Of a stretch of 64,000 bases of DNA, positions 8,929 through 34,926 are shown piece after piece. Position 1 is the stretch's first letter; every line of letters begins with the position of its first letter. The stretch comes from an uncultured Gammaproteobacteria bacterium. GTDB taxonomy: Bacteria > Patescibacteriota > Microgenomatia > UBA8517. The stretch lies in assembly GCA_964489145.1 (NCBI GenBank), contig CAZAXL010000001.1, forward strand, positions 52,910 through 116,909, given 5' to 3'. Made by a program: the position numbers and the translations under genes. The notes beneath the pieces were generated by a model. The model was not told the origin of the DNA and did not search any database. It saw nothing but the letters and a program-made list of their open reading frames with translations.

Positions 8929-9231
8929 TTAAAAAATAAGCATTGCTCCAAAAAATACCAGGAGGAATCCAAAGAGCCAAATGGTGGTTGAAATTACTGT
9001 ATCCAATGCTTCCTTTTTCTTGTCAGCTATAAAAAGCTTGTAGGGTTTGTATAAAACTATTGCCGCGCAGATGAGTGCCGACGTGGAAAAAAGAAGAAGG
9101 ACAAGAACCGGAGCGAAATACGAGTTTACTTTACCGAAAATCTCGTTCCCTTTCCAAAATATAAGTCCGACAAGGGCGCAGTAAAGGAAAACTTCCAGAG
9201 CTTGCAAAAAACCTCGCCTATTAAATAGCAT
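8929..9231 (-). CDS. Small hypothetical membrane protein (3 predicted TM segments). Last gene of the dcw-strand operon.
   Basis: 100 aa of hydrophobic stretches, co-directional and tightly spaced after the Cys-rich gene. Confidence 0.45.
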   Translation of the reverse strand: MLFNRRGFLQALEVFLYCALVGLIFWKGNEIFGKVNSYFAPVLVLLLFSTSALICAAIVLYKPYKLFIADKKKEALDTVISTTIWLFGFLLVFFGAMLIF

Positions 9232-9245
9232 TAATACATTATACC

Positions 9246-9629
9246 TTACTCGACCGGTTCAATAAAAATCGGAGATAATCCATTTTCTTTCCTGATAATG
9301 TTGCAGTCGGAACATCCGATTGCGAAGTTGCGAGCGGCATATTCGCGCTCATCATGTTTCAGACAAGATCCATCAGAAAGTCTATTCGGACAAGGGCCGT
9401 TTATTACAAGTACGTAAAAATCTCCTCCCTCAAGACCTTTTCTGGAATATTCTGTGTAATACAAACTCTGCAGGTTATCTTTCTTAATTTGTGCAAGTTC
9501 TTTCATCGAATCAACGTGAATTGCTGTGGGGAAAACTCTGGTTTTTTCCGATTTTGTGATCTCAATATCAATATCCTGACAGCAAAAACCCGGACAACCG
9601 GATTTTACACAAGGATTTCTTTCGGGCAT
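9246..9629 (-). CDS. Cys-rich putative Fe/Zn-chelating protein (YkgJ/UPF0153-like). Its start codon overlaps the ftsZ stop (TAATG).
   Basis: 127 aa with two Cys clusters, CVKSGCPGFCC and GPCPNRLSDGSC...GCSDC. The pattern resembles the CxxCxxCC-family putative metal-chelating domain. The 1-nt overlap with ftsZ suggests translational coupling. Confidence 0.5.
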   Translation of the reverse strand: MPERNPCVKSGCPGFCCQDIDIEITKSEKTRVFPTAIHVDSMKELAQIKKDNLQSLYYTEYSRKGLEGGDFYVLVINGPCPNRLSDGSCLKHDEREYAARNFAIGCSDCNIIRKENGLSPIFIEPVE

Positions 9630-10795
9630 TAGCGGATTTTCCTGAGGAACGCTGGGATCTCGAACTTTTCTCCAAAAACATCTTCATCTTTTCCCGAATT
9701 TCCGCCATTTTCCGGTGGCTCGTCACCTTCGTCTTCGTCTTCCCGTTTTTCAGTTATTGATCCAGTCGGCTCGCTGACAACGCCGGAAACTATTGGTCTT
9801 TGAACCGCCGTCTGGCTCATCTGGGCAAGATGGGATCTCGTTTCATCAAACCCCGTGGCAATAACGGTAATTTTGACCTGATCTGAAAGTTCAGATTTTA
9901 TAACGGCTCCAAAAATTACATTTGCATCCGGGTCGGCCGCCGAGGAAATAATTCTTGCCGCCTCATCTACCTCAAACATTGTAAGGTCATTGCCTCCGGC
10001 AACATTGAAAAGAACTCCGCGCGCACCCTCAATCGAAAGATCGAGAAGTGGTGAGGAAACTGCCGCTCTCGCTGCCATTTGGGCTCTATTCTCCCCGACT
10101 CCGGTTCCGATACCAAGAAGGGCACTTCCGGCGTCTTTCATAATTGCCTTGACGTCGGCAAAGTCTACGTTAACAAGTCCAGCGGTTGTAATAATATCGG
10201 CTATTCCCCCGACACCTTGTCCCAAAACCGAATCTACTACCTTAAAAGCCTCAAGAAGAGTCATCTTCCTGTCAATCACGTCCATAAGCCTCTGATTTGG
10301 GATTACTATCAGGGTATCCGTCGCCTCTTTTAGTCTTTCTATGCCGTCCTCCGCTGCGATCATTCTTCTTGTTCCCTCAAAAGCAAAGGGTTTTGTGACG
10401 ACTCCTATAGTCAAAGCTCCCGCCTCTTTGGCAAGCTGGGCTACAATCGAAGCCGCTCCAGTTCCGGTTCCCCCGCCCATTCCCGCGGTAACAAATACCA
10501 TCTCCGTATCAATAAGAAGTTCTTTAATTTTTTCAACGGATTCCTCCGCTGCCTGACGGCCAACTTCAGGATTGCCCCCAACTCCCAAACCTTTGGTCAA
10601 CTTTTCACCGATTTGAAGTTTTGTTGGGGCTTTATTGTTAAGAAGAACTTGCGCGTCCGTATTTATGGCGACAAACTCCACGCCGTTGACCGTGCCAGAT
10701 TCTATCATTGAAGATATTGCGTTTCCGCCTCCACCACCGACGCCAATTACTTTGATTTTTGCTATTCTTGCGGAATCCGGTTTAACAAGTGCCAT
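9629..10795 (-). CDS. ftsZ: Cell division protein FtsZ
   Basis: Tubulin signature [11 protein letters not shown]7 loop, and an acidic C-terminal tail with a conserved C-terminal peptide (DIPAFLRK). Confidence 0.95.
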
Positions 10796-10867
10796 AAAAT
10801 TTATATTTTATAATTTATAATAAAAAACTATACGTGGCAGAATTGTACCTTGGGCAGAAGGAAAACA

Positions 10868-10891
10868 CAAGCCTGCCTACTGGCAGGCTAA
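10868..10891 (-). terminator. Intrinsic terminator/attenuator hairpin immediately after the ftsA stop, in the ftsA-ftsZ spacer
   Basis: On the minus-strand RNA: UAG-UUA-GCCUGCC-AGUA-GGCAGGC-UUGUGUUUUCCUUCU. This is a 7-bp GC-rich stem (10871-10877 / 10882-10888) followed by a U-rich tract. An AT-rich TATAAA/TATAAT-containing region (10796-10835) then precedes the ftsZ ATG. Confidence 0.45.
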
Positions 10892-12154
10892 CTATGGTAA
10901 AAGATTTTTAATGTTGTCAATCAGTTTACCAAAAACTCCAACCGAGGGTAGTTTCATCTTTTTTGAGAAACTTGTCAAGTTCTCCGCAGGCCTCGCTTTT
11001 GCCCCATAACGCAAGAGTCCTACACAAGTTGAAAATGAAGGGGTGATGACGTCATCAATCAGCCCTCCCACGCCTTTGGGTACGCCAATTCTTACCGGAA
11101 CGGAAAGAACGCGTCTGGCAGAGTCGACTGCCCCCGCGGTTTCAGCTCCGCCTCCGGTAATTATCGCCCCTGAAGGAATCCTGTTGACAACTCCTTCTTT
11201 TTCAAGTTCTAACTTAACCATGGAAAAAATTTCATTTAATCGCGGCCTGATTATTCCCTCAACTAGAGTCTTTTTGGATATTTTCCTGATCTCTGTAATA
11301 TTCAGCCCGGCCAGATCCAGTTCATCGCTTTCCTCTTTGTCTTTTTTCTTTTCATCGGAAAGAGCTATTTTGATTTTCTCAGCTGTTTCCAGAGAAACCC
11401 TAAGGCCAATCGCCAAATCATTGGTCACATTTCTGGCTCCAATCGGGATAACTCCCGAATAAACAATTGCGCCTTCCATATATGCGGCAATAGAAGTGGT
11501 ACCTCCTCCGATATCTATAAGGACACATCCCAGTTCTTTTTCGGTGGGGGTTAGTACCGCCTCGGCTGAGGCTAGTCCCGAAAAAACCGTTTCTTCAATT
11601 TTTATTCCAACCTCGTTTATGGCTTTTTTGGCATTTTTCAAAGCGGCCGAGGCTGCCGAAACTATATGGGTATCAACCTCAAGCCTTACCCCGCTCATGC
11701 CGACAGCGTCGCGTACACCGGACTCTCCGTCAACAATAAATTCTCTGGGAACTACAAAAATAACCTCACGGGATACCGGCAGAGAAATCGCGGATGCGGC
11801 TTCGATTGCCCTATCAACATCACTCTCCGTTATTTCACCATTAGGGTCCGACACGGCCACAACCCCATGTGAATTTTGTGAATGGATATGGGCACCTCCT
11901 ATGGAAACGTAAGCCGTTTCAAGATTGTATCCCGCCATGCGCTCGGCGGCCTCTATTGAGGTAATGGTTGCCTCGACTGCCTCTTCAATGTCCACAATCT
12001 GTCCTTTTTTAATTCCTTTGGATTCCGACTGTGAGGCACCAACCACATTAATTGAAGTTTCACCCGTCACAGGATCCCCGATTACTTGACCTACGAGGGT
12101 CGCGATTTTACTCGACCCCATGTCTATAGCAGCAACTATTCTTGGTTTACTCAT
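10892..12154 (-). CDS. ftsA: Cell division protein FtsA (actin-like ATPase)
   Basis: 420 aa. Phosphate-1 motif AIDMGSSKI, DIGGGTT, and position between ftsQ and ftsZ. Confidence 0.9.
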   Translation of the reverse strand: MSKPRIVAAIDMGSSKIATLVGQVIGDPVTGETSINVVGASQSESKGIKKGQIVDIEEAVEATITSIEAAERMAGYNLETAYVSIGGAHIHSQNSHGVVAVSDPNGEITESDVDRAIEAASAISLPVSREVIFVVPREFIVDGESGVRDAVGMSGVRLEVDTHIVSAASAALKNAKKAINEVGIKIEETVFSGLASAEAVLTPTEKELGCVLIDIGGGTTSIAAYMEGAIVYSGVIPIGARNVTNDLAIGLRVSLETAEKIKIALSDEKKKDKEESDELDLAGLNITEIRKISKKTLVEGIIRPRLNEIFSMVKLELEKEGVVNRIPSGAIITGGGAETAGAVDSARRVLSVPVRIGVPKGVGGLIDDVITPSFSTCVGLLRYGAKARPAENLTSFSKKMKLPSVGVFGKLIDNIKNLLP

Positions 12155-12180
12155 TTTTTTAATTAGATCACTTTGATTAC

Positions 12181-12852
12181 TTATCTTAATACAGGATTTC
12201 TGTAACGCAAGTCAATCTGCGAATACAAAGTTTTATTTTCTCCGCTTTGAATATTCGAGTATATAAGCCTCAGGGAACCTAAGAGGATCTCCCTATCGGC
12301 ACCCACTAAAGGAAATATTACTCTGATAGGGCCTGTCAGATCAACAAGCAAAGTATCTCCTTCGATAGTACTTGATCCTATTTGATACATTTTATATACA
12401 CCGTCGGTAAGTTGTAAAGCAAAAAAATCTTTATCATTAACTCTTTCCCCTTCTTTAGGCAAACTGCCGCCCGTAATTACCCTGGGTAGAGAAGTTTCAC
12501 CGGATACATTAAGTACATATCCGTCTTTATCAACAAGGGCAAAAGTCTCAGAGGATTTGTTTTTTAGGGCAAATACGGGTTTTTTTATAATCAAGTCAAC
12601 CCTTAAGATGTTCGGAAGCTTGAATTGAATCGTAAATCCTGAAACCAAAAAGTTTGATTTTAAATTTTTCTTAATCTCTCTTTCGGCAAAAAACATTGTT
12701 TTTCCGTTTAGAGGGGTTAATCGGTCGGAAATTGCCGGCGGACAAGCCCCAAATTGGGTCTTACAATCTATCCGGATTTTTATAAAAAATCTGGGAAGAA
12801 ATATCACCAAAACCAGTAAAAACAGGGCTAACGGCAGGATAATTTTTTTCAC
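12181..12852 (-). CDS. ftsQ: Cell division protein FtsQ/DivIB-like (single N-terminal TM plus POTRA-like region)
   Basis: 223 aa with an N-terminal TM segment. The call rests mainly on its conserved position between murG and ftsA. Confidence 0.6.
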   Translation of the reverse strand: MKKIILPLALFLLVLVIFLPRFFIKIRIDCKTQFGACPPAISDRLTPLNGKTMFFAEREIKKNLKSNFLVSGFTIQFKLPNILRVDLIIKKPVFALKNKSSETFALVDKDGYVLNVSGETSLPRVITGGSLPKEGERVNDKDFFALQLTDGVYKMYQIGSSTIEGDTLLVDLTGPIRVIFPLVGADREILLGSLRLIYSNIQSGENKTLYSQIDLRYRNPVLR

Positions 12853-13952
12853 TTCATATAGTTTCCGACCAAATTTACAAGACTCTTGGATGCCCCAAAA
12901 TCCGGGCTTATCTTTCCCTTTACGTTCTTGATAATTTCAGGAAACTTGATGATCCTGTTTTCGATTGCGCTGAGGAGCTTTTCGGGGGTTAGCTTGTCCT
13001 GGGGAATTATTTCGGCAATCCCCCATTTTTTGGCAATTTTTGCATTCTCGGTCTGCTCATCAAGGAAGCTTATGGGAAGAGGGATCAAAATTGCGGGACG
13101 TTTGACCAGCATTATCTCGGACACCGTATTGGCTCCGGCCCGGCTGACAACAACTGAGGCTTGAGAATAAATTTTCGAAATCTCCAAAGGATTAACGCGT
13201 ATAAAAACTTCATAATTATCCCTTAAGGCCTGGGGGAGCTTTTGCTTAATATCGGAGAACTTCAGATAGTCAATGCCTCCGGTTTGGTGAATTATTTTAT
13301 ATTTGGTCAAAAGTGTCCTTAGAATTTTCTCGAGAGCCAGATTGATGCTTTGCGAACCACGCGATCCTCCAGTAACAAAAATCACAGGCGGGTCCGCCGG
13401 TTTTTCGGCCGGCTTAACCATTCTTATATCTTTCATTACAGGGTTTCCCGTAATTTCGCACTTGGAGCCCAGGAAATACTTTTTACTTTCACTCCTGGCC
13501 AGAGTAATTCTGGCGGCAAACCTTGCGGAGGCCAAATTTGCCCGTCCGGCGGCTGAAGTTTGTTCATGAATAATAACCGGGATTCCCAAAAGTTTAGCAT
13601 TAAATACGACAGGAAAAGAAGCAAATCCGCCAAATGAAAGCACCGTCTTTGGTTTGATCTTCACCAGGTAATAGAGGGACTGAACAAAGCCTATCGGAAT
13701 TTTTAAATACGATGGGATAGTCCACACGGTAAACCTTCGCTGAAGCCTGCCTGTGGTCAACGGCAAAAATTTTACGCCAAGCCGAGGCAAAACTTCGGAT
13801 TCCAGCGTCACAACTTTTTTCCCCTCAATCGCATTTTTTACCCCAATCCAGTAGAGCCTCCAGTCTTTATTCTGCGATTTTATTTCCTCAACAACTGCAA
13901 CTGCGGTTGTTGCGGCATGTCCGCCGGTAAGAACCAGTCTATTTTTGCTCAT
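12849..13952 (-). CDS. murG: UDP-GlcNAc:undecaprenyl-PP-MurNAc-pentapeptide GlcNAc transferase MurG (GT28)
   Basis: N-terminal LTGGHAATT (GGTGGH-type motif) and GT-B fold. Overlaps ftsQ by 4 nt. Confidence 0.9.
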   Translation of the reverse strand: MSKNRLVLTGGHAATTAVAVVEEIKSQNKDWRLYWIGVKNAIEGKKVVTLESEVLPRLGVKFLPLTTGRLQRRFTVWTIPSYLKIPIGFVQSLYYLVKIKPKTVLSFGGFASFPVVFNAKLLGIPVIIHEQTSAAGRANLASARFAARITLARSESKKYFLGSKCEITGNPVMKDIRMVKPAEKPADPPVIFVTGGSRGSQSINLALEKILRTLLTKYKIIHQTGGIDYLKFSDIKQKLPQALRDNYEVFIRVNPLEISKIYSQASVVVSRAGANTVSEIMLVKRPAILIPLPISFLDEQTENAKIAKKWGIAEIIPQDKLTPEKLLSAIENRIIKFPEIIKNVKGKISPDFGASKSLVNLVGNYMK

Positions 13953-15045
13953 GGGTCGTAAATTTCGATATATTTAGTAGTATACCGCAAGCGGAAAGTA
14001 TCATCACCAAACTGCTTCCCCCATAGGAAAAAAACGGCAAAGGGATTCCGGTTAAAGGGACCAGTGAAACCATCGAGCCAATATTTAAAAACGCCTGTCC
14101 GCCAATCCATGCCGAAATTCCGACGGCGAGGACTGAAGCAAATTTATCCGGCGCGTTTTTGGCAATTCGAAGCCCTCTAATCACAAAAAACACAAAAAGG
14201 AATATGATAACCGAGGCGCCTACCAAACCCAATTCCTCGGCAATTACGGCAAAAATAGAGTCTGTTGAGGCTTCAGGTAAAAATGAATATTTTTGGCGTG
14301 ATGCGCCAAAACCAACCCCGAAAATTCCTCCCGAACCAAGCGCTAAAAGAACTTGTCTAATATGATAAGACTTACCCAAAGGGTCGGCTGTACTTTCCAA
14401 AAATGTCGATAATCTGGCGCGTCTGTAGGGAGAGGCCAGAATTAACAAGAATGTGGCCAGGCTCCCGGCCGCTGCCGCCCCTATGACATAAAGAAGGCCT
14501 ACATCCGCCACAAAAATCTGGGAAAATCCTATAACCAGGACCACAAGTGTTGTCCCCAAATCGGGTTGCAGCATAATGAGCCCTGCGATTAGCACTAGTG
14601 GAATAAAATACGCAAGCGGGGATTTTTTACTTGCGGCAACTTTGGCAAGATATATTGCAACCGTAAATTTCACAAGTTCCGAGGGCTGAAAGTTAACGGG
14701 GCCAAAACTGATCCAGCGCCTGGCTCCAAGCGCCGAAATGCCAAAGCGCTGCAACAAAACCAGAACAAGAAGTATTAAAGAAAGAAAGAAAAGTGGTGTT
14801 CCTATTTTTTCCCAAAAAGTATATTTTATTCTCGAAACAACAAAAAAAGCCGCCATCCCGATACCGGCTGAGAGAATTTGCTGCTTCAACAAATAAAATT
14901 TATCTCCGTAGTTGCTTAAGGATTGCGGAGCCGAAACATCGGCAACCGCAATTATTCCCAGGACAACGAATGCTATGACAAGAAAAAATAATTTATTGTC
15001 AAAAGACTTGTTTTGCTTTGAAAGTGTCAGTTTTCTATTTCTCAC
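13939..15045 (-). CDS. ftsW: SEDS-family lipid II polymerase FtsW
   Basis: 368 aa polytopic protein with SEDS C-terminal motifs (PEASTDSIFAVIAEELGLVG, PLTGIPLPFFSYGGSS). Canonical dcw position between mraY and murG. Confidence 0.85.
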   Translation of the reverse strand: MRNRKLTLSKQNKSFDNKLFFLVIAFVVLGIIAVADVSAPQSLSNYGDKFYLLKQQILSAGIGMAAFFVVSRIKYTFWEKIGTPLFFLSLILLVLVLLQRFGISALGARRWISFGPVNFQPSELVKFTVAIYLAKVAASKKSPLAYFIPLVLIAGLIMLQPDLGTTLVVLVIGFSQIFVADVGLLYVIGAAAAGSLATFLLILASPYRRARLSTFLESTADPLGKSYHIRQVLLALGSGGIFGVGFGASRQKYSFLPEASTDSIFAVIAEELGLVGASVIIFLFVFFVIRGLRIAKNAPDKFASVLAVGISAWIGGQAFLNIGSMVSLVPLTGIPLPFFSYGGSSLVMILSACGILLNISKFTTHEQK

Positions 15046-15056: not shown

Positions 15057-16106
15057 TTACATTGTCGCCAGCCAGAGTCCGAACACTCCCAAAAGAAGGC
15101 CCAGAATCCATGCACGTATAACAATTTTGGGCTCTTTCCAGCCTCTTGCCAGAAAAGTGTGGTGAATTGGAGCCAAAGGAAAGATGGGTCTTTTCAAATA
15201 TTTCCAACCCAAAATTTGAATAAGAGAAGTGGTGGCTTCAATGACAAAAATTCCCCCGACGACAACAAGCGCCAAGATTTTTCCTGTAATAAGACCTATT
15301 ACCGCCAGCATTGCCCCAAAAGAAAGGGCTCCGGCATCCCCCAGAAAAATTCTTGCCGGCCAGACATTAAAGTATAAAAACGCGAATAGAGCACCCACCC
15401 AGAGTGAAATAAAGAAGAGAAGCGGAGTATCCAGATTTCCGATTGCAATTACTTCAAATACGCCAAGGCAGATCAGCAAAAGCCCTGTGGAGAGTCCGTC
15501 AAGTCCGTCGGTAATATTAAAGGCGTTTGAAAACGCGACGATAACGAAAGCCGAAAACGGTATATACCATATACCCAAATCCCAAACCATATCAAAGCCG
15601 GGAATGTTGACGATATGAACTCCTAAATATTTATATATGAAAAAACCCAAAAGAAGACCAAGGATCCACTGTAAAATGAATTTTTGTCTGCGTCTGAGGC
15701 CAAACCAAAGTCCTAAAACGCCTTTTGTGGGCTTGCTGAAAACTTTCAAAAGATCATCGGACAATCCAAGAAGCCCAAAAGAAATAAAAGCAAAAAATAT
15801 TACAAAAAGCTCCGCTCTCAGCGAAAACGAACTTTTGACAAAAAGTCCTAAAAATGATGCCAGCGGGAAAGAAATCGCAAAAAGTATTGTAACTACAGCA
15901 ATAATCAAAATTCCACCCCCTACAGGAGTGCCTTCTTTAATATCGTGAAGTTTATCAAAAAGAGGCACTTTTCCATGTTCCGGAGCCTCTTTCCTTCTTG
16001 TAAGCTTCAACCTATAAAGCAAATTAATAAAGGGGACTATCAATACACCGCAGATAAGAAAGGAGAAAATTATAAGCCCCAAATTTAGAGTTAAATAGTT
16101 TGTCAT
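15057..16106 (-). CDS. mraY: Phospho-N-acetylmuramoyl-pentapeptide transferase MraY
   Basis: NAFNITDGLDGL and DDLLKVF motifs; 10-TM topology. Confidence 0.95.
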   Translation of the reverse strand: MTNYLTLNLGLIIFSFLICGVLIVPFINLLYRLKLTRRKEAPEHGKVPLFDKLHDIKEGTPVGGGILIIAVVTILFAISFPLASFLGLFVKSSFSLRAELFVIFFAFISFGLLGLSDDLLKVFSKPTKGVLGLWFGLRRRQKFILQWILGLLLGFFIYKYLGVHIVNIPGFDMVWDLGIWYIPFSAFVIVAFSNAFNITDGLDGLSTGLLLICLGVFEVIAIGNLDTPLLFFISLWVGALFAFLYFNVWPARIFLGDAGALSFGAMLAVIGLITGKILALVVVGGIFVIEATTSLIQILGWKYLKRPIFPLAPIHHTFLARGWKEPKIVIRAWILGLLLGVFGLWLATM

Positions 16107-16132
16107 ACGGACCAGTTAGATTATAACAGCAT

Positions 16133-19126: not shown

Positions 19127-19144
19127 AAGGGTATTATATGATAA

Positions 19145-20194: not shown

Positions 20195-20203
20195 GAATGG
20201 AGA

Positions 20204-25711: not shown

Positions 25712-25774
25712 CTGTGGTATATTATATCAGCAATCGAGCCCGACTCCAATTGAGGCGAGGGCAGAATTATAACA

Positions 25775-27289: not shown

Positions 27290-27369
27290 AATATTAATTA
27301 TAGCTTATAACTATAAACTATATATACTATTATATACTGTATATGCAAGCTCTGCCCAGTTTTGGCAAG

Positions 27370-29145
27370 TTATTTAACAGTTACGGATTTGGCCAAATTT
27401 CTGGGTTTATCCGGATCAAGTCCTTTCTTTATTGTGAGGTAGTAGGCAAGAAGCTGAGCAACAACAACCTCGGGAATAATACTGGACTCCCCGGCATCGG
27501 AAACATGTATATAATAATCAAAAACCTCGTGAGGTTTATGAGAAATCCCGATAATATAGCCTCCTCTTGCCTTCATTTCCATGGCTCCGGCAAGATTTGA
27601 TCCGTAAGTCTCATCGTTGGGGAGAAAACTGATACACGGAGTACCTTTTTCAATCAAAGCAAGCGGGCCATGCTTAAGTTCGCCCGCGGCAAGGCCTTCG
27701 GCATGAATGTATGAAATTTCCTTAATTTTAAGTGCTGTTTCAAGGCTTGCCGGGTAAGAAAGCCCACGTCCGATTACATAGACATGTTTTTTGTCTACGA
27801 TGAGCGATGTAAGTTCTTTAATTTTTCTTAGAGATTTGGGGGATAATATCTGATTAACCGACTTAACTGCTGCCATCAGTGATTTTTGACCTTCTTTTAC
27901 TCCGCCGTTTAATGAATTGGCCAAAAGCACTAGGTGCGCAACCATGCCGGTAAAAGCCTTTGTTGACGCAACGGCCCTTTCCTGGCCGGCTCCAATCAGC
28001 ATCTTATAATCGGATAGTCTGTAAAGGGATGAACCGGGAACATTTACCAGACTTAGAATTTTCGCACCCTTATCTTTGGCTTTTTTAACCGATTCCAGAA
28101 TATCCATCGTTTCTCCGGACTGTGAAATTGCAATCACCAGACTATCTTTATTTAAGAAATCCAAACTGTAGCCAAACTCGCTGCCTATCGCAAAGTTTAC
28201 GTGCCGTTTTGCCAGTTTGGAAAACAAATAAGATCCCGCAAGACAGGCATATGAAGCCGTCCCGCAGCCTACCAAATAGGTTCCCCGCGCGTCTTTGATC
28301 TTTTTTGCTATTTCTTCAGCCTGAGAAGCTCCGGAAACGGCAATATCCGTAATAATTTGAGGCTGCTCAAAAATTTCTTTAAGCATGTAAAACTCATATT
28401 TTCCCTTTTCACCTTGTTCAATTTTCCAATCCAGCCTTTTTCTTTTAGGAGTAATCTCTTTGACGGTTTTTACATTCAAAATAGTAACCTTGCCGGGGGC
28501 AAGAACGGCCATTTCATTGTCTTCAAGAAAATAAACGTCTCTTGTGTAGGGAAGAAGTGCCGACGCGTCGCTTGCCAAAAAATTTTCATTCTTACCAAAC
28601 CCGATTACCAGAGGGGATCCGTTCCTGGCGGCTACCAGTAAGTTTTCCTTCGCGCTGACGGCTATCACGGCATTAAGCCCATCCATGCGGTTAAATGCCG
28701 CTCTTACCGCCTCAGCAAAGGGTTTGTCTTTGCTAAAATCCTCAAGGAGGTGCGTCAAAGTTTCCGTATCCGTTTCAGAAACAAATTTATGACCTTTCTT
28801 CAATAATCCCTTTTTTATCTCCTCATAATTTTCAAAAATCCCATTATGGATAACGGCAATGGTACCACTACAATCAAGGTGTGGGTGCGCGTTTGCGTCC
28901 GTCACGCCGCCGTGGGTTGCCCAGCGTGTATGGCCGAATGAAAGACTGCCCCCCGGCAAATCGTTGACATTGGCGTTTCCGATTTTACCAACTTTCTTCT
29001 TTATAACTATTGTGTTTTTACTTCCCTCGGGGATCACCCCAACTCCCCAACTGTCGTATCCGCGGTATTCAAGACTTTTCAAACCACTAAAAACCAGTTT
29101 CTGTCCGTCATTTCTATTACCAACATATCCAAATATTCCACACAT
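27370..29145 (-). CDS. glmS: Glutamine--fructose-6-phosphate aminotransferase (GlcN-6-P synthase)
   Basis: N-terminal MCGIFGYVG (Ntn Cys), two SIS domains, and C-terminal ...KPRNLAKSVTVK with catalytic Lys context. Confidence 0.95.
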   Translation of the reverse strand: MCGIFGYVGNRNDGQKLVFSGLKSLEYRGYDSWGVGVIPEGSKNTIVIKKKVGKIGNANVNDLPGGSLSFGHTRWATHGGVTDANAHPHLDCSGTIAVIHNGIFENYEEIKKGLLKKGHKFVSETDTETLTHLLEDFSKDKPFAEAVRAAFNRMDGLNAVIAVSAKENLLVAARNGSPLVIGFGKNENFLASDASALLPYTRDVYFLEDNEMAVLAPGKVTILNVKTVKEITPKRKRLDWKIEQGEKGKYEFYMLKEIFEQPQIITDIAVSGASQAEEIAKKIKDARGTYLVGCGTASYACLAGSYLFSKLAKRHVNFAIGSEFGYSLDFLNKDSLVIAISQSGETMDILESVKKAKDKGAKILSLVNVPGSSLYRLSDYKMLIGAGQERAVASTKAFTGMVAHLVLLANSLNGGVKEGQKSLMAAVKSVNQILSPKSLRKIKELTSLIVDKKHVYVIGRGLSYPASLETALKIKEISYIHAEGLAAGELKHGPLALIEKGTPCISFLPNDETYGSNLAGAMEMKARGGYIIGISHKPHEVFDYYIHVSDAGESSIIPEVVVAQLLAYYLTIKKGLDPDKPRNLAKSVTVK

Positions 29146-29150
29146 ATTTT

Positions 29151-30155
29151 TTAAAGACTATTCAAAATTGCCGCACGAAGTTTATCCGGATCATGACGTA
29201 TCATACTTCTGTTGAGAGCATCCCCTTTTTCTTTCTCCGGAATTTTATCGGAAAGGAGGTCTGTTCTGATTATTTTAACTCCATTACCAAAAATTTTAGT
29301 CTTTAAATCATCCTTTACAGGGAATGTGTTTTCAAGTGCATAAGCTTTAAGGGCGGGCTTTGGAAAATTATTGTTGCTGTTAACCAGGACTTTTTTCACA
29401 AGCCCAAGCGGCATATATTTTTTCAGGTCGGCAAAAAAGTCCGACAACGCATATCCCGGAGTCTCACTGCGTGAATTCATTAGATTGGCGATAAATAGAA
29501 TCTCTCCTTTGGATTTTTTTAAAGCATTTACGACACCGTCAACCACCAGGTTGGCAATTGTATTGGTATAAAAATCTCCCGGCCCGATAATTATGAGGTC
29601 TGCTTCCAAAATTGCTTTTTTTGCCTTGGAATTCAGCTTCACAGCCGGTAAAATCTTCAGATTCTTAATTCTGACTCCTGCACTTCTGGATATATCTATA
29701 TTGTGTTCGCCGACAGCCTCGGAACCGTCTTCATATTTAGCCATTAATCTGGCATTGTCATAGCTAATCGGAATAATATCTCCTTTTACCTGTAAAAGAC
29801 GGCAGGTTTCTTCTATTCCTCTTTTTTGCGAACCCATTATGTCAGCCATTGCAGCCATAAATAGATTCCCAAAAGTCATTCCGTCCAGACCCGCTCCCCC
29901 TTTACTGTAGCGGTATGTGAACAATTTTCTCAAAACGGTTTTATTTTCGGATAGAGCAACTATTGCCTGTCTAATGCCTGATGTCGGAAGCAAACCAAAT
30001 TCGTCGCGGATTATTCGGTTTGAACCTCCGTCATCCACCATCGTCATCAACATCGTAATGTGAACAGGAGCACGGCTTAATCCTGAAGCAACAACATACG
30101 AACCTGTCCCTCCTCCAATAATAACAACGTGGGGAATTTTACTCATTCTTTTCAA
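29151..30155 (-). CDS. YvcK/CofD-family (UPF0052, gluconeogenesis-factor/CuvA-like) protein
   Basis: VVIIGGGTGSYV, MVDDGGSNRIIR, IIIGPGDFYTNTIANL motifs. Sits between glmS and murA. Confidence 0.8.
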   Translation of the reverse strand: MKRMSKIPHVVIIGGGTGSYVVASGLSRAPVHITMLMTMVDDGGSNRIIRDEFGLLPTSGIRQAIVALSENKTVLRKLFTYRYSKGGAGLDGMTFGNLFMAAMADIMGSQKRGIEETCRLLQVKGDIIPISYDNARLMAKYEDGSEAVGEHNIDISRSAGVRIKNLKILPAVKLNSKAKKAILEADLIIIGPGDFYTNTIANLVVDGVVNALKKSKGEILFIANLMNSRSETPGYALSDFFADLKKYMPLGLVKKVLVNSNNNFPKPALKAYALENTFPVKDDLKTKIFGNGVKIIRTDLLSDKIPEKEKGDALNRSMIRHDPDKLRAAILNSL

Positions 30156-31395
30156 AAATCTCCGCTCCTAGCAAACGAAGTCTTTGTCCAATATTTTCAT
30201 AGCCCCTGGCAACAACCTCTATATTTTCTATTTCACTTCTGCCCGAAGCCGCAAGAGCAGCTAAAATTACCGAAATGCCGGCTCTTATGTCTTTACAAAA
30301 AAGCCTGTCACTCATAAGTGGCGTCGGGCCGCTGACTATAACCCTATGGGGGTCAGCAATAAATATTTTCGCACCCATCGAAATAAGATCATCCACAAAA
30401 AACATTCTCCATTCATACATCCAGTCGTGGCAGACAACGGTGCCTTTAGTCTGCGTTGCAAGAACAATGAAAGGGCTCATTAAATCAGTCGGAAAACCGG
30501 GCCATGGTCTTGTCTGAAACTTTCCACGAGTAGAAACCAGTTTGGAAGGCAGTACCGTAAGAGAATTTTCTCCGGATTTATAATTCACACCCATATAGCC
30601 CAAGTAATTTAGCATCATGGGGTACTGCCTGGAATCGAAGTCTTCTATTTCTATTTTTCCGCCGGTTATTGCCGAGGCTATCGCAAAAGTGCCGCCCTCA
30701 ATATGATCCGGGCAGACTCTGTGCTCAACTCCGTGCAGTTTGCCACCTCTGATTTTTAAGACATTAGATCCTATGCCTGAAATGTCCGCGCCCATTTTGG
30801 AAAGCATTTTTGCCAAATCCAGAACATGCGGTTCCGTTGCGGCATCGTCAATCGTTATACCGTCAGGCAGAGAGGATGCCATTATAAGCCCCATTTCTGT
30901 AGCCGTAACGGATGGCTCATCCAAAAAAATGTCAGGGGACACTTTTTTCTTCCAGTTCAAAAAATATCTCCCGTCAGTGCGCTTAATTTCCACTCCCATC
31001 TTTTGCATCATGGCAAAGTGGGTATCAAGAAGTCTTTCCCCGATCTGGTCTCCTCCGGGAGGAGTTACAATTGCCTTCCCAAACCGAACCAAAAGAGGTG
31101 CGGCTAAAACCACGGAAGCCCTGAATTTTGCAGACAAATCAGGATCCGGATCAAAAGAATCTAAACCTTGAGGATCAATTGTTACTTCATGATCGCGTTT
31201 TGTAACCTTAACTCCAAGCTTTGAAACAAGGTCAAGCATTACTGAAACATCGGAAATTTCAGGCACATTAGTTAAGGTCGTGGGGGAATCGGCAAGAAGT
31301 GCGGCGGGAATTAACTTCAAAGCCGAGTTTTTATTACCGGAAAGCTTAATTTTTCCCTCAAGCTTGTTGCCGCCGACTATTATAAATTTCGACAT
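30139..31395 (-). CDS. murA: UDP-GlcNAc 1-carboxyvinyltransferase MurA
   Basis: N-terminal FIIVGGNKLEGKIKLSGNKNSALKLIPAALLAD and two-domain inside-out alpha/beta EPT fold. Confidence 0.9.
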   Translation of the reverse strand: MSKFIIVGGNKLEGKIKLSGNKNSALKLIPAALLADSPTTLTNVPEISDVSVMLDLVSKLGVKVTKRDHEVTIDPQGLDSFDPDPDLSAKFRASVVLAAPLLVRFGKAIVTPPGGDQIGERLLDTHFAMMQKMGVEIKRTDGRYFLNWKKKVSPDIFLDEPSVTATEMGLIMASSLPDGITIDDAATEPHVLDLAKMLSKMGADISGIGSNVLKIRGGKLHGVEHRVCPDHIEGGTFAIASAITGGKIEIEDFDSRQYPMMLNYLGYMGVNYKSGENSLTVLPSKLVSTRGKFQTRPWPGFPTDLMSPFIVLATQTKGTVVCHDWMYEWRMFFVDDLISMGAKIFIADPHRVIVSGPTPLMSDRLFCKDIRAGISVILAALAASGRSEIENIEVVARGYENIGQRLRLLGAEIFEKNE

Positions 31396-31413
31396 AACAA
31401 TAAAAGTATTGTA

Positions 31414-33123
31414 TCACCCCTCAGGCTGAATCCCAAAATATGGGAAAAGATCTTTTGCGATTGCAAACCAAAGGGGAGCCGCGGTTTCCGCGGCCCAGGG
31501 CGAACTCTGTGGGGAGTTGAGCGTGACAAGCATTACAAATTTAGGATTGCCGGCAGGAGCAAAACCGACAAACGAATGAATTGTGTTTGTTGCGTCATAA
31601 TGCCCCGCAACCGGAATTTGGGCCGTACCCGTTTTTCCGGCAACCTTAAAGCCCGGGATTTTAACCCATTTAGCCTCACCGCGCTCAGCCGCTTCAACCA
31701 TCATCTGGGTAATTTCTTTCGCGGCTTGCTGTTTAATTATTCTGGTGGGCGGGTCTGCCTCTATTTTTTCCTCCCAACCGTCTCCGTTTACGGCAGTTAC
31801 AACCCTCGGAGTGACAAGATAGCCGCCATTGGCTATGGCGGATACTGCCCTCACTATTTCAATTCCGGTAACGGCTACTCCCTGACCAAAACTGGCTGTT
31901 GCCAGGTCCACCACATTCCAGGTTCCTTTTTCTCTCAGTTTGGGTGCTACTTCACCCTGTAAATCTATGCCTGTTTTTTGTCCAATTCCGAATTTAACAA
32001 AATAATCATAAAGGGTATCTGTCCCCAGTTTTTGGCCAACGAAAGACATTCCGATGTTATCCGACTCCACTATTACATCTGTCATGGATATATCTGCCGT
32101 ATATTTATCATTCCAGGTTTTAATAAAATACTTATCCAGCTTCAAGGGGCCGCTGCAAATATCACAAGGTGTATCCGGCTCCACCACGCCCGCATCCAGT
32201 CCGGCAGCCATTACCACAACTTTTAAGATCGATCCCGGTTCGAAGGTGTTGCTGATGACGGGGTTTTTAAAAAGAGAGTCATTGTATAAACCATAATCAG
32301 CAGGATCGAACGAAGGAAGGCTTGCCATTGCTAAAATTTTCCCGCTTTTAGGATCCATTATTGTAATACTGCCTCCGGCGGCTCCATATTTTTCAATTCC
32401 TTTTGCAAGCTCGTCTTCGACAACAATCTGGACTCTTTTATCAATACTGGTCAAAAGATCAACACCGGAAACTGCCGAAATCCGGGTAGTGCCGCCAAGG
32501 AGTATTGGCGAACCCTTTGCGTCCTTTTCACCGCCCACAAAACCCGGTTTTCCGCTCAGAGGAAGGTTGTAATACCCCTCCAATCCGAAATAGCCGATAT
32601 CAGCCCCGTCATTATCCTTTCCCACAAATCCCAAAAGCTGTGCCGCAGAGGACGATTCGGGATAAAACGAAGCTTCTGCAGCGTCATACCCGATCCCGTC
32701 AATATCCAAAGCCTCAATGTTTATTTTGACGTTGTCATCTATTTTTTGCTTTAATGAAACCCAATTCGAATTTTTTTCCAAAAGGATTCGGAGTCTTTCT
32801 TTTTCGTTTGTAAGCGCGTCAGTATCCCCTTCTTCATCCATCAAAAGCGGTGCGAGTTTACCTGATACCTCCGGCGCCGAAAGGTTCAAAAGATGAGGGT
32901 TCACCCAAAGATTCCAGGAAGGAGCTCTGGCAACCCAAGGAGTCCCGTCTGAAGCCAGAATATTTCCACGGGGAGCAGTGGTCACTGTCGAGGTGCTATG
33001 CTGATTTCTCGCCTGATCCGCAAGCGATTTGCCCTTAATAACCTGCCAGTAAAAAAGCCTTGCCGTCAGCGCCAGAAAAAGTATTATAAAAAGGACCGAA
33101 AGTAAACGAATTTTTACGGGCAT
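31414..33123 (-). CDS. ftsI: Class B penicillin-binding protein (division transpeptidase FtsI/PBP3-like)
   Basis: N-terminal TM plus dimerisation domain, SxxK (GSILKVV), SxN (ESDNIGM) and KTGT (AGKTGTAQ) motifs. Confidence 0.85.
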   Translation of the reverse strand: MPVKIRLLSVLFIILFLALTARLFYWQVIKGKSLADQARNQHSTSTVTTAPRGNILASDGTPWVARAPSWNLWVNPHLLNLSAPEVSGKLAPLLMDEEGDTDALTNEKERLRILLEKNSNWVSLKQKIDDNVKINIEALDIDGIGYDAAEASFYPESSSAAQLLGFVGKDNDGADIGYFGLEGYYNLPLSGKPGFVGGEKDAKGSPILLGGTTRISAVSGVDLLTSIDKRVQIVVEDELAKGIEKYGAAGGSITIMDPKSGKILAMASLPSFDPADYGLYNDSLFKNPVISNTFEPGSILKVVVMAAGLDAGVVEPDTPCDICSGPLKLDKYFIKTWNDKYTADISMTDVIVESDNIGMSFVGQKLGTDTLYDYFVKFGIGQKTGIDLQGEVAPKLREKGTWNVVDLATASFGQGVAVTGIEIVRAVSAIANGGYLVTPRVVTAVNGDGWEEKIEADPPTRIIKQQAAKEITQMMVEAAERGEAKWVKIPGFKVAGKTGTAQIPVAGHYDATNTIHSFVGFAPAGNPKFVMLVTLNSPQSSPWAAETAAPLWFAIAKDLFPYFGIQPEG

Positions 33124-33125
33124 AT

Positions 33126-33452
33126 CTATGGAAGTTTAGCCATAGCCTCCTGAGATTGAGAAACATATACCATCGTGTTTGGTTTTATATAACCCATCTC
33201 ACCGCTTTTTTCTTCCAAACCGTTTATGGAAAGTGAACGGACAAGAGTGCTTTCCAGATTTCTTTTTTCCATGGAAAGTTCGCCCTGTTTTTGCCTAAGG
33301 CTGGAAACTTCCACCCCTGAGGTTGCTGTTTCAACAGTCATAAAAACGGATGAAATTGCCAAAACTGCCCCTACGGCAAATAAAGTATATTTCTTTATTT
33401 TCCAAGCCGACGTTCCTTTGTCGTGACTGTTAAAATTTTTTCTCATTATCAT
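33126..33452 (-). CDS. ftsL: FtsL-like small bitopic division protein
   Basis: 108 aa with a single TM segment and coiled-coil-like periplasmic part. Canonical position between rsmH and ftsI. Confidence 0.5.
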   Translation of the reverse strand: MIMRKNFNSHDKGTSAWKIKKYTLFAVGAVLAISSVFMTVETATSGVEVSSLRQKQGELSMEKRNLESTLVRSLSINGLEEKSGEMGYIKPNTMVYVSQSQEAMAKLP

Positions 33453-33474
33453 AATTTTTATTTTTGTAAAAACA

Positions 33475-34389
33475 CTATTTTTCTAAAACCCGCATCTTTG
33501 CACTCCTTGCTCTTCTATTAATTCCAATCTCATCAGCCTCAGCCATGATGGGTTTAAAAGTTATCTGTTTTGCCCCCACTTTTGTCATTTCTTTAAAAAA
33601 GTTCTTAACCAAAACGTCCTCCTTTGAATGAAAACTTATAACAACCAGCCTTCCACCTTTTTCAATCAAGTCAAACGCCTTAGGTAAAACCTCTTCCAGA
33701 TTGGTCAACTCGCTATTGACCGCAACCCTGACGGCTAAAAACGGTAAAGTTGCCTCATTTAATCCCGGCTTACCGATTTTAAGTCCCTCGGAAATTTCCA
33801 AAAGGTCTCCGACCGTTTCTATGGGTTTATCCATTCTCGAATGCATAACCCGGCCTGAAATCCATTTCGCCGCCCCAGGCTCCATTGTTGCCTCAAAAAG
33901 ATCTCTCAACTGATCTTCTCTTAAAACATTTAAAAGATCGGATCCTTTTACTCCCTGAGTTTCCGGATTCATTCTCATGTCTAAAGGTGCCTCTGAATTA
34001 CCAAATGAAAACCCTCTTTCGAGATCTTTCAAGTGTAAATTTGTTACACCAAGGTCAAAAAGAATTCCGGCAACAGGGTACCAGCCGTTTTCTTTGGCAA
34101 TTCTGTCAATCTCGGTAAAGTTCCCTCCAACTAGCTTGAAATCCTTTTTATTAGCAGTTTTCAGCCTTCCTTCGGCTATTTCAAGCATTTTGGGGTCGAT
34201 CTCTATTCCTAAAACCATTCCTCCCGAATTCAAGATTTCCAAAGTATGCCCCGCATTTCCGAGCGTTGCGTCAATATATTTACTACCTTTTTCAATGTGC
34301 AAGGCCTCTATGGCCTTTTTAACTAATACTGATTCGTGAAATTCATTTTTCATTTCTTTTTGCCAGATCTTCAATATAACTGGCTGCAT
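33475..34389 (-). CDS. rsmH: 16S rRNA (cytosine1402-N4)-methyltransferase RsmH (MraW)
   Basis: HESVLVKKAIEAL, DATLGNAGHT SAM-MTase motifs. Confidence 0.9.
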   Translation of the reverse strand: MQPVILKIWQKEMKNEFHESVLVKKAIEALHIEKGSKYIDATLGNAGHTLEILNSGGMVLGIEIDPKMLEIAEGRLKTANKKDFKLVGGNFTEIDRIAKENGWYPVAGILFDLGVTNLHLKDLERGFSFGNSEAPLDMRMNPETQGVKGSDLLNVLREDQLRDLFEATMEPGAAKWISGRVMHSRMDKPIETVGDLLEISEGLKIGKPGLNEATLPFLAVRVAVNSELTNLEEVLPKAFDLIEKGGRLVVISFHSKEDVLVKNFFKEMTKVGAKQITFKPIMAEADEIGINRRARSAKMRVLEK

Positions 34390-34780
34390 CTTTGGCCACT
34401 TCTTTTTCCCGCTCTTCCCAAATCTCTTTATTCCAAATTTCTACCCGATCGCCAACTCCCAAAAAGTAAACCTGATCTTTCAGATTTGCATAAGCCACCA
34501 GCCTGTCGGGTACTACTATCCGGCCCTGATCATCGGGAACAACTTCATAAGAAGACGCAAAAATGAAATGTTCGGTCTTTCTTATGGGTTCAATTATTGT
34601 TCTTTGATCCCCCGTGACCCTCCCTAAAAGTGTATTTAAAGAGCTTTTACCAACAAGAACCAGACATTCTTCGTACCACTGCGACAAAATCAATTCTTTT
34701 CCCAGATTTTCCCGAAAGACAGAAGGAATGGAGATTCTCTTCCCCGAAGTCACGCTCACCAAATATGTACCTAAAAACAT
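34343..34780 (-). CDS. mraZ: Transcriptional regulator MraZ
   Basis: 145 aa with a tandem MraZ/SpoVT-AbrB-like half-domain and N-terminal MFLGTY...GKRISIPSVFRENLG. First gene of the dcw operon. Overlaps rsmH by 47 nt. Confidence 0.85.
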   Translation of the reverse strand: MFLGTYLVSVTSGKRISIPSVFRENLGKELILSQWYEECLVLVGKSSLNTLLGRVTGDQRTIIEPIRKTEHFIFASSYEVVPDDQGRIVVPDRLVAYANLKDQVYFLGVGDRVEIWNKEIWEEREKEVAKDAASYIEDLAKRNEK

Positions 34781-34819
34781 TTCTTTTCATCTGGGCAGAT
34801 GTGGTTAGAAACAGTAATT

Positions 34820-34871
34820 ACCATTTCTCACCATTAACAACCATTTAATATTATTTTCACGGTGCTGTCAA
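34820..34871 (-). promoter_or_regulatory. Candidate Pmra promoter (-35 TTGACA at 34866-34871, -10 TTAAAT about 17 nt downstream) with three direct AATGGT repeats at exact 10-bp phasing between it and the mraZ ATG. Candidate MraZ operator.
   Basis: Plus-strand ACCATT at 34820-34825, 34830-34835 and 34840-34845 (minus strand AATGGT x3, 10-bp period). Perfect TTGACA upstream. Known MraZ boxes are three 10-bp-phased direct repeats downstream of Pmra. Confidence 0.45.
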
Positions 34872-34926
34872 GACCCGCTTCACGGAAGATCTTTATATGG
34901 TTATTACCGGAATATTTGAATGAAGA

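Follow-up and report, generated by a model that had tools for sequence, protein, structure and literature searches.

An expanded and reordered dcw cluster with a MurE-GlmU(N) chimera in Candidatus Woesebacteria

The 64-kb stretch of DNA analyzed here, called the window throughout, comes from Candidatus Woesebacteria (Microgenomates, candidate phyla radiation [CPR]/Patescibacteria) and contains a 26-kb cluster of genes for cell division and the cell wall (dcw cluster). Read on the minus strand from position 34780 down to 8929, the gene order is mraZ, rsmH, an ftsL-like gene, ftsI, murA, yvcK, glmS, an open reading frame (ORF) of 107 amino acids (aa), murE-glmU(N), murC, murB, murD, a gene for a 349-aa protein with the fold of pyridoxal phosphate (PLP) enzymes, murI, ddl, murF, mraY, ftsW, murG, an ftsQ-like gene, ftsA, ftsZ, and two small ORFs (Table 1). 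A first-pass annotation had described about 27 codirectional genes in a single-strand block. We counted 24 minus-strand ORFs in 8929-34780, 22 of them from mraZ to ftsZ, and found that the block is split by a plus-strand gene, encoding a HAD-like phosphohydrolase joined to a GNAT domain (HAD-GNAT), which is convergent with the 107-aa ORF and divergent from murE-glmU(N). The tight or overlapping junctions were described correctly: they range from -47 to +34 nucleotides (nt), except those of glmS and the 107-aa ORF (80 nt) and of ftsA and ftsZ (96 nt), and the divergent spacer (63 nt). Pfam and NCBIfam searches likewise bore out the calls of the dcw set and of murA, murB, murI, ddl, glmS, and yvcK, with ftsL and ftsQ placed by position. 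The plus-strand GNAT gene, the 349-aa protein, and the 107-aa ORF had been overlooked. The genes added to feed the Mur pathway (glmS, yvcK, the GlmU uridyltransferase domain, murI, and ddl) each adjoin the enzyme using their product; murI, for example, follows murD, and ddl precedes murF. The absence of glmM and of the GlmU acetyltransferase domain, noted for the block, extends to the whole window: the GlmM/phosphohexomutase signature SASHNP was not found in six frames of the 64 kb, and, apart from the hexapeptide protein discussed below, two genuine split GlmU-C proteins used as tblastn queries gave no hit in the window and, among related Woesebacteria loci, only one (in L020). No alanine racemase gene (alr) was found within the window, and an Rfam scan of it returned no known RNA and no glmS ribozyme.

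The block belongs to a real genome. The 669-aa MurE-GlmU(N) protein occurs, 100% identical and in the same gene context, on at least four independently assembled contigs (European Nucleotide Archive, Joint Genome Institute twice, and the Rifle aquifer), and on a 283-kb contig of Woesebacteria UBA8517 the gene order is unchanged, the fusion protein is 95% identical, and the other cluster proteins are 87 to 100% identical. An assembly or binning chimera, absent from any real genome, might be suspected because the sequence is metagenome assembled and the public records of several related contigs carry wrong taxon labels in their titles, but the recurrence of the protein and its context on four independent assemblies and on the 283-kb contig excludes such an artifact for practical purposes. 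Five Woesebacteria-like contigs (L009, L013, L014, L021, and L023) are titled "uncultured Gammaproteobacteria" or "Alphaproteobacteria," probably through mislabeling of the deposited metagenome-assembled genomes.

We compared the block, by tblastn and ORF maps, with about 19 Woesebacteria-like loci, which have protein identities of 45 to 95% and are numbered here with an L. These loci share a core gene order: glyRS–221-aa ORF–mraZ–rsmH–ftsL–ftsI–murA–(yvcK)–murE-glmU(N)–murC–murB–murD–…–murF–mraY–ftsW–murG. Between these genes lie variable slots, which hold glmS (with the 107-aa ORF and sometimes a NagB-like gene), alr, murI, and ddl, as well as a DegT aminotransferase with FemAB, a gene of the inositol-monophosphatase family, and a pair of threonine-dehydrogenase-like and Kbl-like genes. 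In many of these relatives, MurC and MurB are fused (L089 3657-5966, and L009 to L011, L013, L017, L018, and L023 with 733 to 769 aa). At L088 1-808 there is a MurB–Mur-ligase fusion, the ligase of which is probably MurD.

The cluster has the hallmarks of a dcw cluster, with mraZ-rsmH and then ftsL-ftsI at the 5' end (ftsL by a weak match and position), murE, murF, mraY, murD, ftsW, murG, murC, murB, ddl, and murA in the interior, ftsQ-ftsA-ftsZ at the end, and one opposite-strand insert. It shares this beginning and end, the genes murC to murG, mraY, ftsW, ddl, murA, and murB, and the tight junctions with the canonical clusters, that is, the 15 genes from mraZ to ftsZ in Escherichia coli and the 17-gene version of Halanaerobiales. 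The canonical internal order, murE-murF-mraY-murD-ftsW-murG-murC-murB-ddl, is not seen, however; here murA comes right after ftsI and is followed by murE-murC-murB-murD-...-murF-mraY-ftsW-murG, an order conserved within Woesebacteria, and glmS, yvcK, the GlmU N-terminal domain, murI, the PLP-fold protein, HAD-GNAT, and the 107-aa ORF are added. The longest published dcw version has 17 genes, including murA and murB, and is complete only in Halanaerobiales, in a survey whose sample did not include CPR genomes (PMC8871954). Judged by sequence matches and gene position, the Woesebacteria cluster is made up of all 17 dcw genes, reordered, together with genes for the supply of UDP-N-acetylglucosamine (UDP-GlcNAc) and D-amino acids. 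Few bacterial gene arrangements are as highly conserved as the dcw cluster; CPR/Patescibacteria were not covered by published surveys of it. In Woesebacteria and neighboring Microgenomates it has come to gather almost all of the cytoplasmic peptidoglycan pathway, with lineage-specific additions such as glmS, nagB, yvcK, alr, murI, femAB, and even genes that might generate acetyl-CoA. New findings are the enlarged and reordered form of the cluster particular to CPR, the MurE-GlmU(N) chimera and its neighboring GNAT gene, and the predicted promoter architecture described below.

The GlmU uridyltransferase domain had been listed in the first-pass annotation alongside the other genes of the block. 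It is present, not as a separate gene but as the C-terminal third of a protein that begins with MurE. The MurE part has three Mur-ligase domains and scores 412 bits with TIGR01085 (cutoff, 257) and 402 bits with NF001126, the model for the meso-diaminopimelate type (cutoff, 373). The GlmU models match with their positions 2 to 240 only, over residues 424 to 664 and with 195 to 205 bits, and their whole-protein scores are below the cutoffs; for the LbH acetyltransferase domain, no GlmU-model positions beyond ~246 are matched in the fusion. The uridyltransferase signature L-x2-G-x-G-T-x-M-x4-P-K is found as VILAAGKGTRMKSTLPKV (LAAGKGTRM...PKV), and the linker between the two parts is almost nil (…ENFLGRSKDISAVILAAGKGTRM…). 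The fusion is conserved at 55 to 95% identity in about 19 loci. Among 1.84 billion representative proteins, full-length fusions form only about 8 to 10 clusters at 50% identity, all from Woesebacteria-like genomes, and outside the fusion the GlmU part has its closest relatives among stand-alone nucleotidyltransferases of ~250 aa from other Microgenomates.

Sister lineages show what the unfused arrangement looks like. A Daviesbacteria locus (L090) has murE, a glmU-N gene overlapping the murE stop codon by ATGA, a separate GlmU-C gene (TIGR01173 positions 238 to 441, 246 bits), three ATP-citrate-lyase-like genes, murC, murB, and murA. In Woykebacteria (L091), murE adjoins glmU-N and an LbH gene lies ~5 kb away, and L020 has an unfused murE together with a 433-aa bifunctional gene for a nucleotidyltransferase plus LbH. 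The adjacent murE–glmU-N pairs of Daviesbacteria and Woykebacteria suggest an explanation for the Woesebacteria fusion: most likely, the chimera would have arisen when an overlapping pair, such as Daviesbacteria still have, lost the stop codon of murE. The published Mur chimeras are MurE-MurF, MurC-Ddl, MurC-MurB, MurG-MurC, MurD-FtsW, and MraY-MurG, from a survey that excluded unidentified species (PMC10214165). MurE-GlmU(N) resembles them as a head-to-tail fusion of neighboring genes for cell wall precursors, with nonconsecutive partners as in MurG-MurC and MurC-Ddl, but a GlmU uridyltransferase partner is not in that list, and the fusion is a Mur chimera type outside the published lists. 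It also resembles split or truncated GlmU (preprint 10.64898/2026.06.23.733835; L090 and L091) in having a uridyltransferase domain without LbH, which in L090 and L091 adjoins murE; the differences are that glmU-N is here fused to MurE, that no GlmU-C is nearby, and that a GNAT gene stands at the junction.

This plus-strand gene belongs to a small family of 21 proteins. Its AlphaFold2 model has a mean predicted local distance difference test (pLDDT) score of 90.5. The GNAT half matches PF00583 with 21.5 bits (cutoff, 20.7) and, by Foldseek, the GNAT structures 3eo4, 2ae6, and 8iyo. The HAD half has a C1-capped fold with a Rossmann-like core and intact HAD phosphotransferase motifs I to IV (DxDxT, S/T, K, and DD), and fold searches do not separate it from ordinary phosphatases and dehalogenases, with beta-phosphoglucomutases ranking lower. 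HAD-GNAT is found divergent beside the fusion in the window, L005, L006, L013, L088 (39% identity), and L089 (51%). A GNAT-only version takes this place in L009 and L014 and truncated remnants in L008 and L016, while ten other fusion-bearing loci have no HAD-GNAT within ±10 kb. In eukaryotes, GNA1, which is a GNAT, acetylates glucosamine 6-phosphate, and AGM1 and then UAP1 follow. A relationship of our GNAT to GNA1 was considered and rejected: a PDB search with a profile built from 11 GNAT domains retrieved Naa50, YycN, SpeG, and RimI-type proteins and no GNA1. The likeness to the eukaryotic UDP-GlcNAc pathway is one of logic only, in that a GNAT-fold gene lies beside a monofunctional uridyltransferase and GlmS, whereas specific similarity to GNA1 is lacking, no phosphoacetylglucosamine mutase was found, and the HAD domain has no counterpart. 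The window's only hexapeptide protein (56229-56834) was also rejected as a GlmU-C, as it is a WcaF-like O-acetyltransferase in a glycosyltransferase cluster and matches GlmU over ~40 residues.

Sister lineages carry GlmU-C at the junction where the GNAT gene lies here, and the fusion itself lacks an acetyltransferase domain. The GNAT, the only evident acetyltransferase in the block, is therefore a natural if tentative candidate for the missing enzyme. As an extension of the explanation we prefer for the cluster, the GNAT, with or without the HAD domain, could have displaced the GlmU LbH domain, so that glmS, GNAT, and MurE-GlmU(N) would form a noncanonical, possibly eukaryote-like UDP-GlcNAc route. 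The missing LbH domain and the lack of a GlmU-C homolog in the window speak for this, as do the murE|glmU-N|glmU-C or bifunctional arrangements of sister lineages at the same place, the constant divergent position of the GNAT over 39 to 100% identity, with the GNAT half retained when the HAD half is lost, the use of a GNAT for this step in eukaryotes, and the potential acetyl-CoA-generating genes (ATP-citrate-lyase-like and Tdh/Kbl-like) that relatives have recruited nearby. Moreover, "an unidentified acetyltransferase" has been postulated for bacteria that have a truncated GlmU N-domain alone (10.64898/2026.06.23.733835). Against it, the GNAT lies beside the fusion in only 9 of the 19 related loci and is truncated or decayed in L008 and L016, and this patchy distribution with decayed copies argues against a universally essential role. 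The generic GNATs retrieved from the PDB, the undistinguished HAD domain, the failure to find a phosphohexomutase signature in 64 kb, and the possibility of a GlmU-C gene or N-acetylglucosamine (GlcNAc) salvage elsewhere in the genome also count against displacement, which we hold to be doubtful.

With a probability not far below even, the HAD-GNAT and 349-aa PLP-fold genes are instead chance passengers in a permissive cluster and have nothing to do with peptidoglycan; glucosamine phosphate would then be acetylated by an enzyme encoded elsewhere, or the cell would take up GlcNAc from a host. Reliance on scavenging is general among CPR bacteria. The two genes have a patchy distribution in relatives, the more distant homologs of the PLP protein stand in unrelated contexts, and the cluster takes many lineage-specific inserts (inositol monophosphatase, alpha/beta hydrolase, and short-chain dehydrogenase/reductase [SDR] genes). 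Against this, the GNAT always stands at the very same divergent junction beside the fusion and at no other site within ±10 kb; most other inserts have a clear connection to peptidoglycan or UDP-GlcNAc (alr, nagB, femAB, and glmS), and in L009 and L013 a canonical DegT gene stands beside femAB. Displacement in its fullest form would mean a UDP-GlcNAc route undescribed in bacteria, with the GlmU acetyltransferase lost, the uridyltransferase welded to MurE, and a new GNAT subfamily, here HAD-fused, doing the acetylation; we regard this as slightly less probable again than displacement as such. If it is true, the GNAT would be the "unidentified acetyltransferase" postulated for bacteria with a truncated GlmU N-domain only, and nucleotide-sugar synthesis would be physically coupled to Mur ligase assembly. 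The GNAT is a specific candidate, open to cloning, for the acetyltransferase required in bacteria without a GlmU C-domain.

Several other genes near GlmU parts were seen in these loci. ATP-citrate-lyase-like subunits lie within or beside the dcw cluster in Daviesbacteria (L090 8419-11324) and Woykebacteria (L091 1-1279), and three Woesebacteria have an SDR (threonine-dehydrogenase-like) gene (L015 8161-10268, L023 12936-15037, and L019 12875-13837), with a Kbl-like partner in L015 and L023. L088 encodes a NUDIX-GNAT fusion of 271 aa between yvcK and glmS (4211-5026), and a stand-alone NUDIX gene lies directly downstream of the cluster in the window (8428-8925, plus strand). The HAD-GNAT and NUDIX cases, as predicted from their domains, show a recurring phosphohydrolase–acetyltransferase pairing near UDP-GlcNAc genes.

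Regarding transcription, the first-pass annotation had read the whole 26 kb as one polycistronic "super-operon" that extends to ftsZ and has its sole promoter upstream of mraZ. The tightness of most junctions, the strong conserved promoter upstream of mraZ, and the lack of convincing intrinsic terminators above chance in our scan are in keeping with that reading. The plus-strand gene in mid-block is not: convergent on the upstream half, it divides the block into a part from mraZ to the 107-aa ORF (7.8 kb) and a part from murE to ftsZ and the two small ORFs (16.8 kb). Nor are the 80-nt gap with a TATAAT before the 107-aa ORF, the 96-nt AT-rich gap before ftsZ, and the conserved -10 boxes before at least four internal genes. 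These boxes are gene specific. In 18 of 19 relatives, a -10-like box precedes murA by 5 to 14 nt; murE-glmU has an exact TATAAT 6 to 9 nt before its ATG in 11 of 16 and, in a 12th, AATAAT at 15 nt; and such boxes precede mraY in 10 of 12 and murI in 4 of 7, but they are rare before mraZ (1/17), yvcK (1/8), glmS (2/7), and ftsI (5/17). murC serves as an internal control, since it has an exact TATAAT only in the four loci in which opposite-strand inserts lie ahead of it (L015, L017, L019, and L020). In the window, near-consensus -10 boxes are also found before murF and ftsZ. A single super-operon is thus very improbable. The opposite-strand gene and the gene-specific conserved -10 boxes lead us to infer several internal promoters with leaderless or very short-leader mRNAs, and the block, as far as sequence can tell, is unlikely to be one operon and would consist of several transcription units.

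The same signal is seen beyond the cluster. Exact TATAAT occurs 3 to 20 nt before the start codon of 9 of the 61 genes in the window, whereas only 0.66% of 23-nt windows taken at random contain it. TATAAT with at most one mismatch occurs before that of 24 of the 61, against a background of 9.6%. Shine-Dalgarno-like motifs are rare in the window. Leaderless or short-leader genes are thus indicated by a -10-like box ~6 to 12 nt upstream together with rare Shine-Dalgarno motifs; in published work, leaderless genes are marked by a -10-like signal ~10 nt ahead of the start codon (PMC3160421; PMC6028130). This suggests that leaderless or short-leader translation is widespread in the source organism. 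Boxes 5 to 13 nt before starts are found window-wide, for example, at 269, 35589-36890, and 38455-39291, and in the dcw genes. Transcription probably starts at the TTGACA promoter upstream of mraZ, with further probable starts at internal extended -10 promoters 6 to 13 nt from start codons, which would give leaderless or near-leaderless mRNAs. A consensus promoter and terminator scan was rejected as sole evidence, its counts being near chance.

Upstream of mraZ, a layout of TTGACA...CGTGAAA...AATGG x3 is kept in about 17 Woesebacteria loci, and Daviesbacteria have AAGTGG repeats instead of AATGG. Three-repeat MraZ operators are known in E. coli and Mycoplasma, and the repeat of the E. coli MraZ box is TGGGN. 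The region shares with the MraZ-regulated promoter Pmra the three direct repeats at ~10-nt spacing near the mraZ promoter and differs from it in the repeat sequence; we infer that the AATGG repeats are a MraZ operator. Between the repeats and the ATG, the mraZ leader has a small hairpin. Its CTGCC(C) motif is found 8 to 19 nt before the mraZ ATG in 18 loci, and the hairpin has the same position in L007 to L023 and L088 to L090. The loop keeps its motif unchanged, and the stems covary, differing in sequence but staying complementary (CATCT/AGATG, GAAC/GTTC, GAAA/TTTC, GTCC/GGAC, GTGA/TCAC, and TAGC/GCTA). Minimum-free-energy folding placed the motif within a hairpin loop for 14 of the 16 sequences, and the hairpin has no match in Rfam. 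A similarity between the loop and the GCCC around C1402 of 16S rRNA, the target of RsmH, could be coincidence. The conserved promoter, repeat, and hairpin layout at mraZ and the near-leaderless internal promoters are testable regulatory predictions for uncultured organisms with minimal genomes.

The placement of yvcK had been taken as a striking argument from genomic context for a role in precursor flux. The argument is valid but not new, as the GlmR-GlmS interaction has already been published for Bacillus subtilis: GlmR/YvcK binds UDP-GlcNAc and stimulates GlmS directly, up to 16-fold, and 0.1 mM UDP-GlcNAc abolishes the stimulation (PMC7525490; PMC6171935). Listeria GlmR has been reported as an accessory uridyltransferase (PMC10128056). 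In the window, yvcK overlaps murA by 17 nt and lies 5 nt upstream of glmS, and the arrangement murA–yvcK–glmS is, by analogy, what the GlmR-GlmS results would predict. Membership in the YvcK subfamily is clear from TIGR01826 (Table 1), the true CofD model giving only 23 bits. The protein shares its subfamily with GlmR of B. subtilis, and its gene directly adjoins glmS and murA, whose enzymes make and consume intermediates of the UDP-GlcNAc pathway; in Firmicutes, by contrast, the gene is found in yvcJ-yvcK-whiA and not beside glmS, and no yvcJ or whiA is present here. Of 19 relatives, 17 retain the gene in the cluster; even when glmS has another location, yvcK adjoins either murA or the MurE-GlmU fusion. 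The copies of the window, L005, and L006 have only ~30% identity with the other Woesebacteria copies (L007 to L023, L088, and L089), whereas these are 54 to 93% identical to one another and the neighboring genes are 60 to 85% identical. This difference points to replacement of yvcK in place by a distant homolog, which argues for selection on YvcK at this spot, and its retention beside glmS or murA after such a replacement is independent comparative support for the Firmicutes GlmR model. Given its adjacency to glmS and murA, YvcK most likely activates the neighboring GlmS, with UDP-GlcNAc switching the activation off, as in Bacillus.

Taken jointly, an expanded and reordered dcw cluster with several transcription units, MurE-GlmU(N) formed by stop codon loss, and YvcK acting as in Bacillus make up the explanation that we consider probable. 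Several points weigh against it. The ftsL and ftsQ assignments are made from position, size, and an N-terminal transmembrane segment, and murF is just under the curated TIGR01143 cutoff (274 versus 289 bits). The consensus promoter and terminator scans gave counts near chance (38 versus 25±6 expected and 22 versus 17±4), long read-through transcripts within each half are possible despite the internal promoters, and the AATGG repeats are unlike the E. coli TGGGN box. The absence of glmM, alr, and GlmU-C is a statement about the block and the 64-kb window, not about the whole organism.

The 349-aa protein has no Pfam, NCBIfam, or PDB match at the sequence level and 234 relatives in Microgenomates annotated as "hypothetical." Its AlphaFold2 model (mean pLDDT, 96) has DegT-family aminotransferases as top Foldseek matches (E, ~1e-11; template modeling score, 0.6 to 0.65), the closest being DegT/ArnB/PseC. 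The motifs EDSVHR (ED-x-x-H) and SLRK (S-x-x-K) are invariant in 40 aligned homologs, the Schiff-base lysine being assigned by motif. On the modeled structure, the protein confidently folds as a fold-type-I PLP enzyme and is a putative distant relative of DegT/ArnB/PseC. Its gene lies within the dcw cluster only in the close relatives of the window, L005 and L007, with distant homologs elsewhere. A simple replacement of alr was rejected, as L007 has both genes side by side and distant homologs lie outside dcw clusters. Between murF and mraY, L009 (19353-21520) and L013 (11932-14075) have a canonical DegT gene (381 to 389 aa) and a FemAB gene (340 aa), preceded by an alpha/beta-hydrolase-like ORF. 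Since DegT genes adjoin femAB there, a link of the 349-aa protein to peptidoglycan is possible. The 107-aa ORF travels with glmS, following it directly in L005 and L006 and occurring also in the inverted nagB-like–glmS–ORF module of L017 and L020, and may encode a GlmS-associated factor.

Table 1. Genes of the dcw cluster and associated sequence elements, with positions in the window
Feature	Positions	Strand	Evidence or remark
mraZ	34343-34780	-	PF02381, 67 bits
rsmH (mraW), 16S rRNA methyltransferase	33475-34389	-	PF01795 (Methyltransf_5), 247 bits
ftsL-like, 108 aa, one transmembrane segment and coiled coil	33126-33452	-	No Pfam match; NCBIfam FtsL_Actino weak, E=2e-4; position kept in relatives
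ftsI, class B penicillin-binding protein	31414-33123	-	PBP_dimer and Transpeptidase
murA	30139-31395	-	TIGR01072, 438 bits (cutoff, 393)
yvcK/glmR (CofD family)	29151-30155	-	PF01933, 231 bits; TIGR01826, 239 bits (cutoff, 196)
glmS	27370-29145	-	TIGR01135, 614 bits
107-aa ORF	26966-27289	-	No Pfam or NCBIfam match
HAD-like phosphohydrolase (residues 1 to ~225) and GNAT (~235 to 390), 390 aa	25775-26947	+	Divergent from murE-glmU(N)
MurE (1 to ~418) and GlmU N-terminal uridyltransferase domain (~421 to 665), 669 aa	23702-25711	-	TIGR01085, 412 bits
murC	22501-23709	-	TIGR01082, 362 bits (cutoff, 335)
murB	21479-22531	-	FAD_binding_4 and MurB_C
murD	20204-21451	-	TIGR01087, 352 bits (cutoff, 212)
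349-aa predicted fold-type-I PLP-dependent protein, distant DegT/ArnB/PseC relative	19145-20194	-	Structure model
murI, glutamate racemase	18314-19126	-	PF01177
ddl, D-Ala-D-Ala ligase	17388-18317	-	Dala_Dala_lig_N and _C
murF	16133-17353	-	TIGR01143 best family, 274 bits (cutoff, 289); without N-terminal Mur_ligase domain
mraY	15057-16106	-	PF00953
ftsW (SEDS family)	13939-15045	-	PF01098, 344 bits
murG	12849-13952	-	Glyco_transf_28 N and C
ftsQ-like, 223 aa, N-terminal transmembrane segment	12181-12852	-	Position between murG and ftsA; no Pfam/NCBIfam match; kept in L007 and L021
ftsA	10892-12154	-	FtsA and SHS2_FTSA
ftsZ	9629-10795	-	Tubulin and FtsZ_C
127-aa Cys-rich protein (CxxCxxCC/YkgJ-like)	9246-9629	-	PF03692 weak, E=0.003; 1-nt overlap with ftsZ stop codon
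100-aa membrane protein	8929-9231	-	No family match
Putative main promoter and operator	34821-34871	-	TTGACA 34866-34871; weak -10 TTAAAT 34843-34848
Three AATGG direct repeats	34841-45, 34831-35, 34821-25	-	Exact 10-nt period, overlapping the -10 region; MraZ-box-like
Small hairpin CATCTGCCCAGATG	34788-34801	-	mraZ leader, between repeats and ATG; conserved CUGCCC loop motif
Extended -10 box TGATACAAT	31408-31413	-	12 nt before murA ATG; near-consensus; candidate internal promoter
TATAAT box of 107-aa ORF	27297-27302	-	7 nt before ATG
Extended -10 box TGATATAAT	25721-25726	-	9 nt before murE-glmU(N) ATG, within the 63-nt divergent spacer; exact TATAAT
TATAAT box of 349-aa PLP gene	20203-20208	-	8 nt before ATG
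TATAAT box of murI	19133-19138	-	6 nt before ATG
Extended -10 box TGTTATAAT	16120-16125	-	13 nt before mraY ATG; exact TATAAT
TATAAT box of last ORF (100-aa membrane protein)	9238-9243	-	6 nt before start

Around the cluster, an ORF at 34927-35592 for a 221-aa membrane-anchored protein without a family match always lies between glyRS and mraZ and overlaps glyRS by 4 nt. Genes for an LCP-family protein and a second SEDS (RodA-like) protein flank the dcw region (37250-38458, plus strand, and 2389-3441). A surface-polysaccharide cluster of ~20 kb (43860-63850) encodes a DUF4012 protein, a Bac_transf sugar transferase, a ManC-like guanylyltransferase, ~8 GT4/GT2 glycosyltransferases, Wzy_C, two PMT_2 proteins, and the WcaF-like acetyltransferase.

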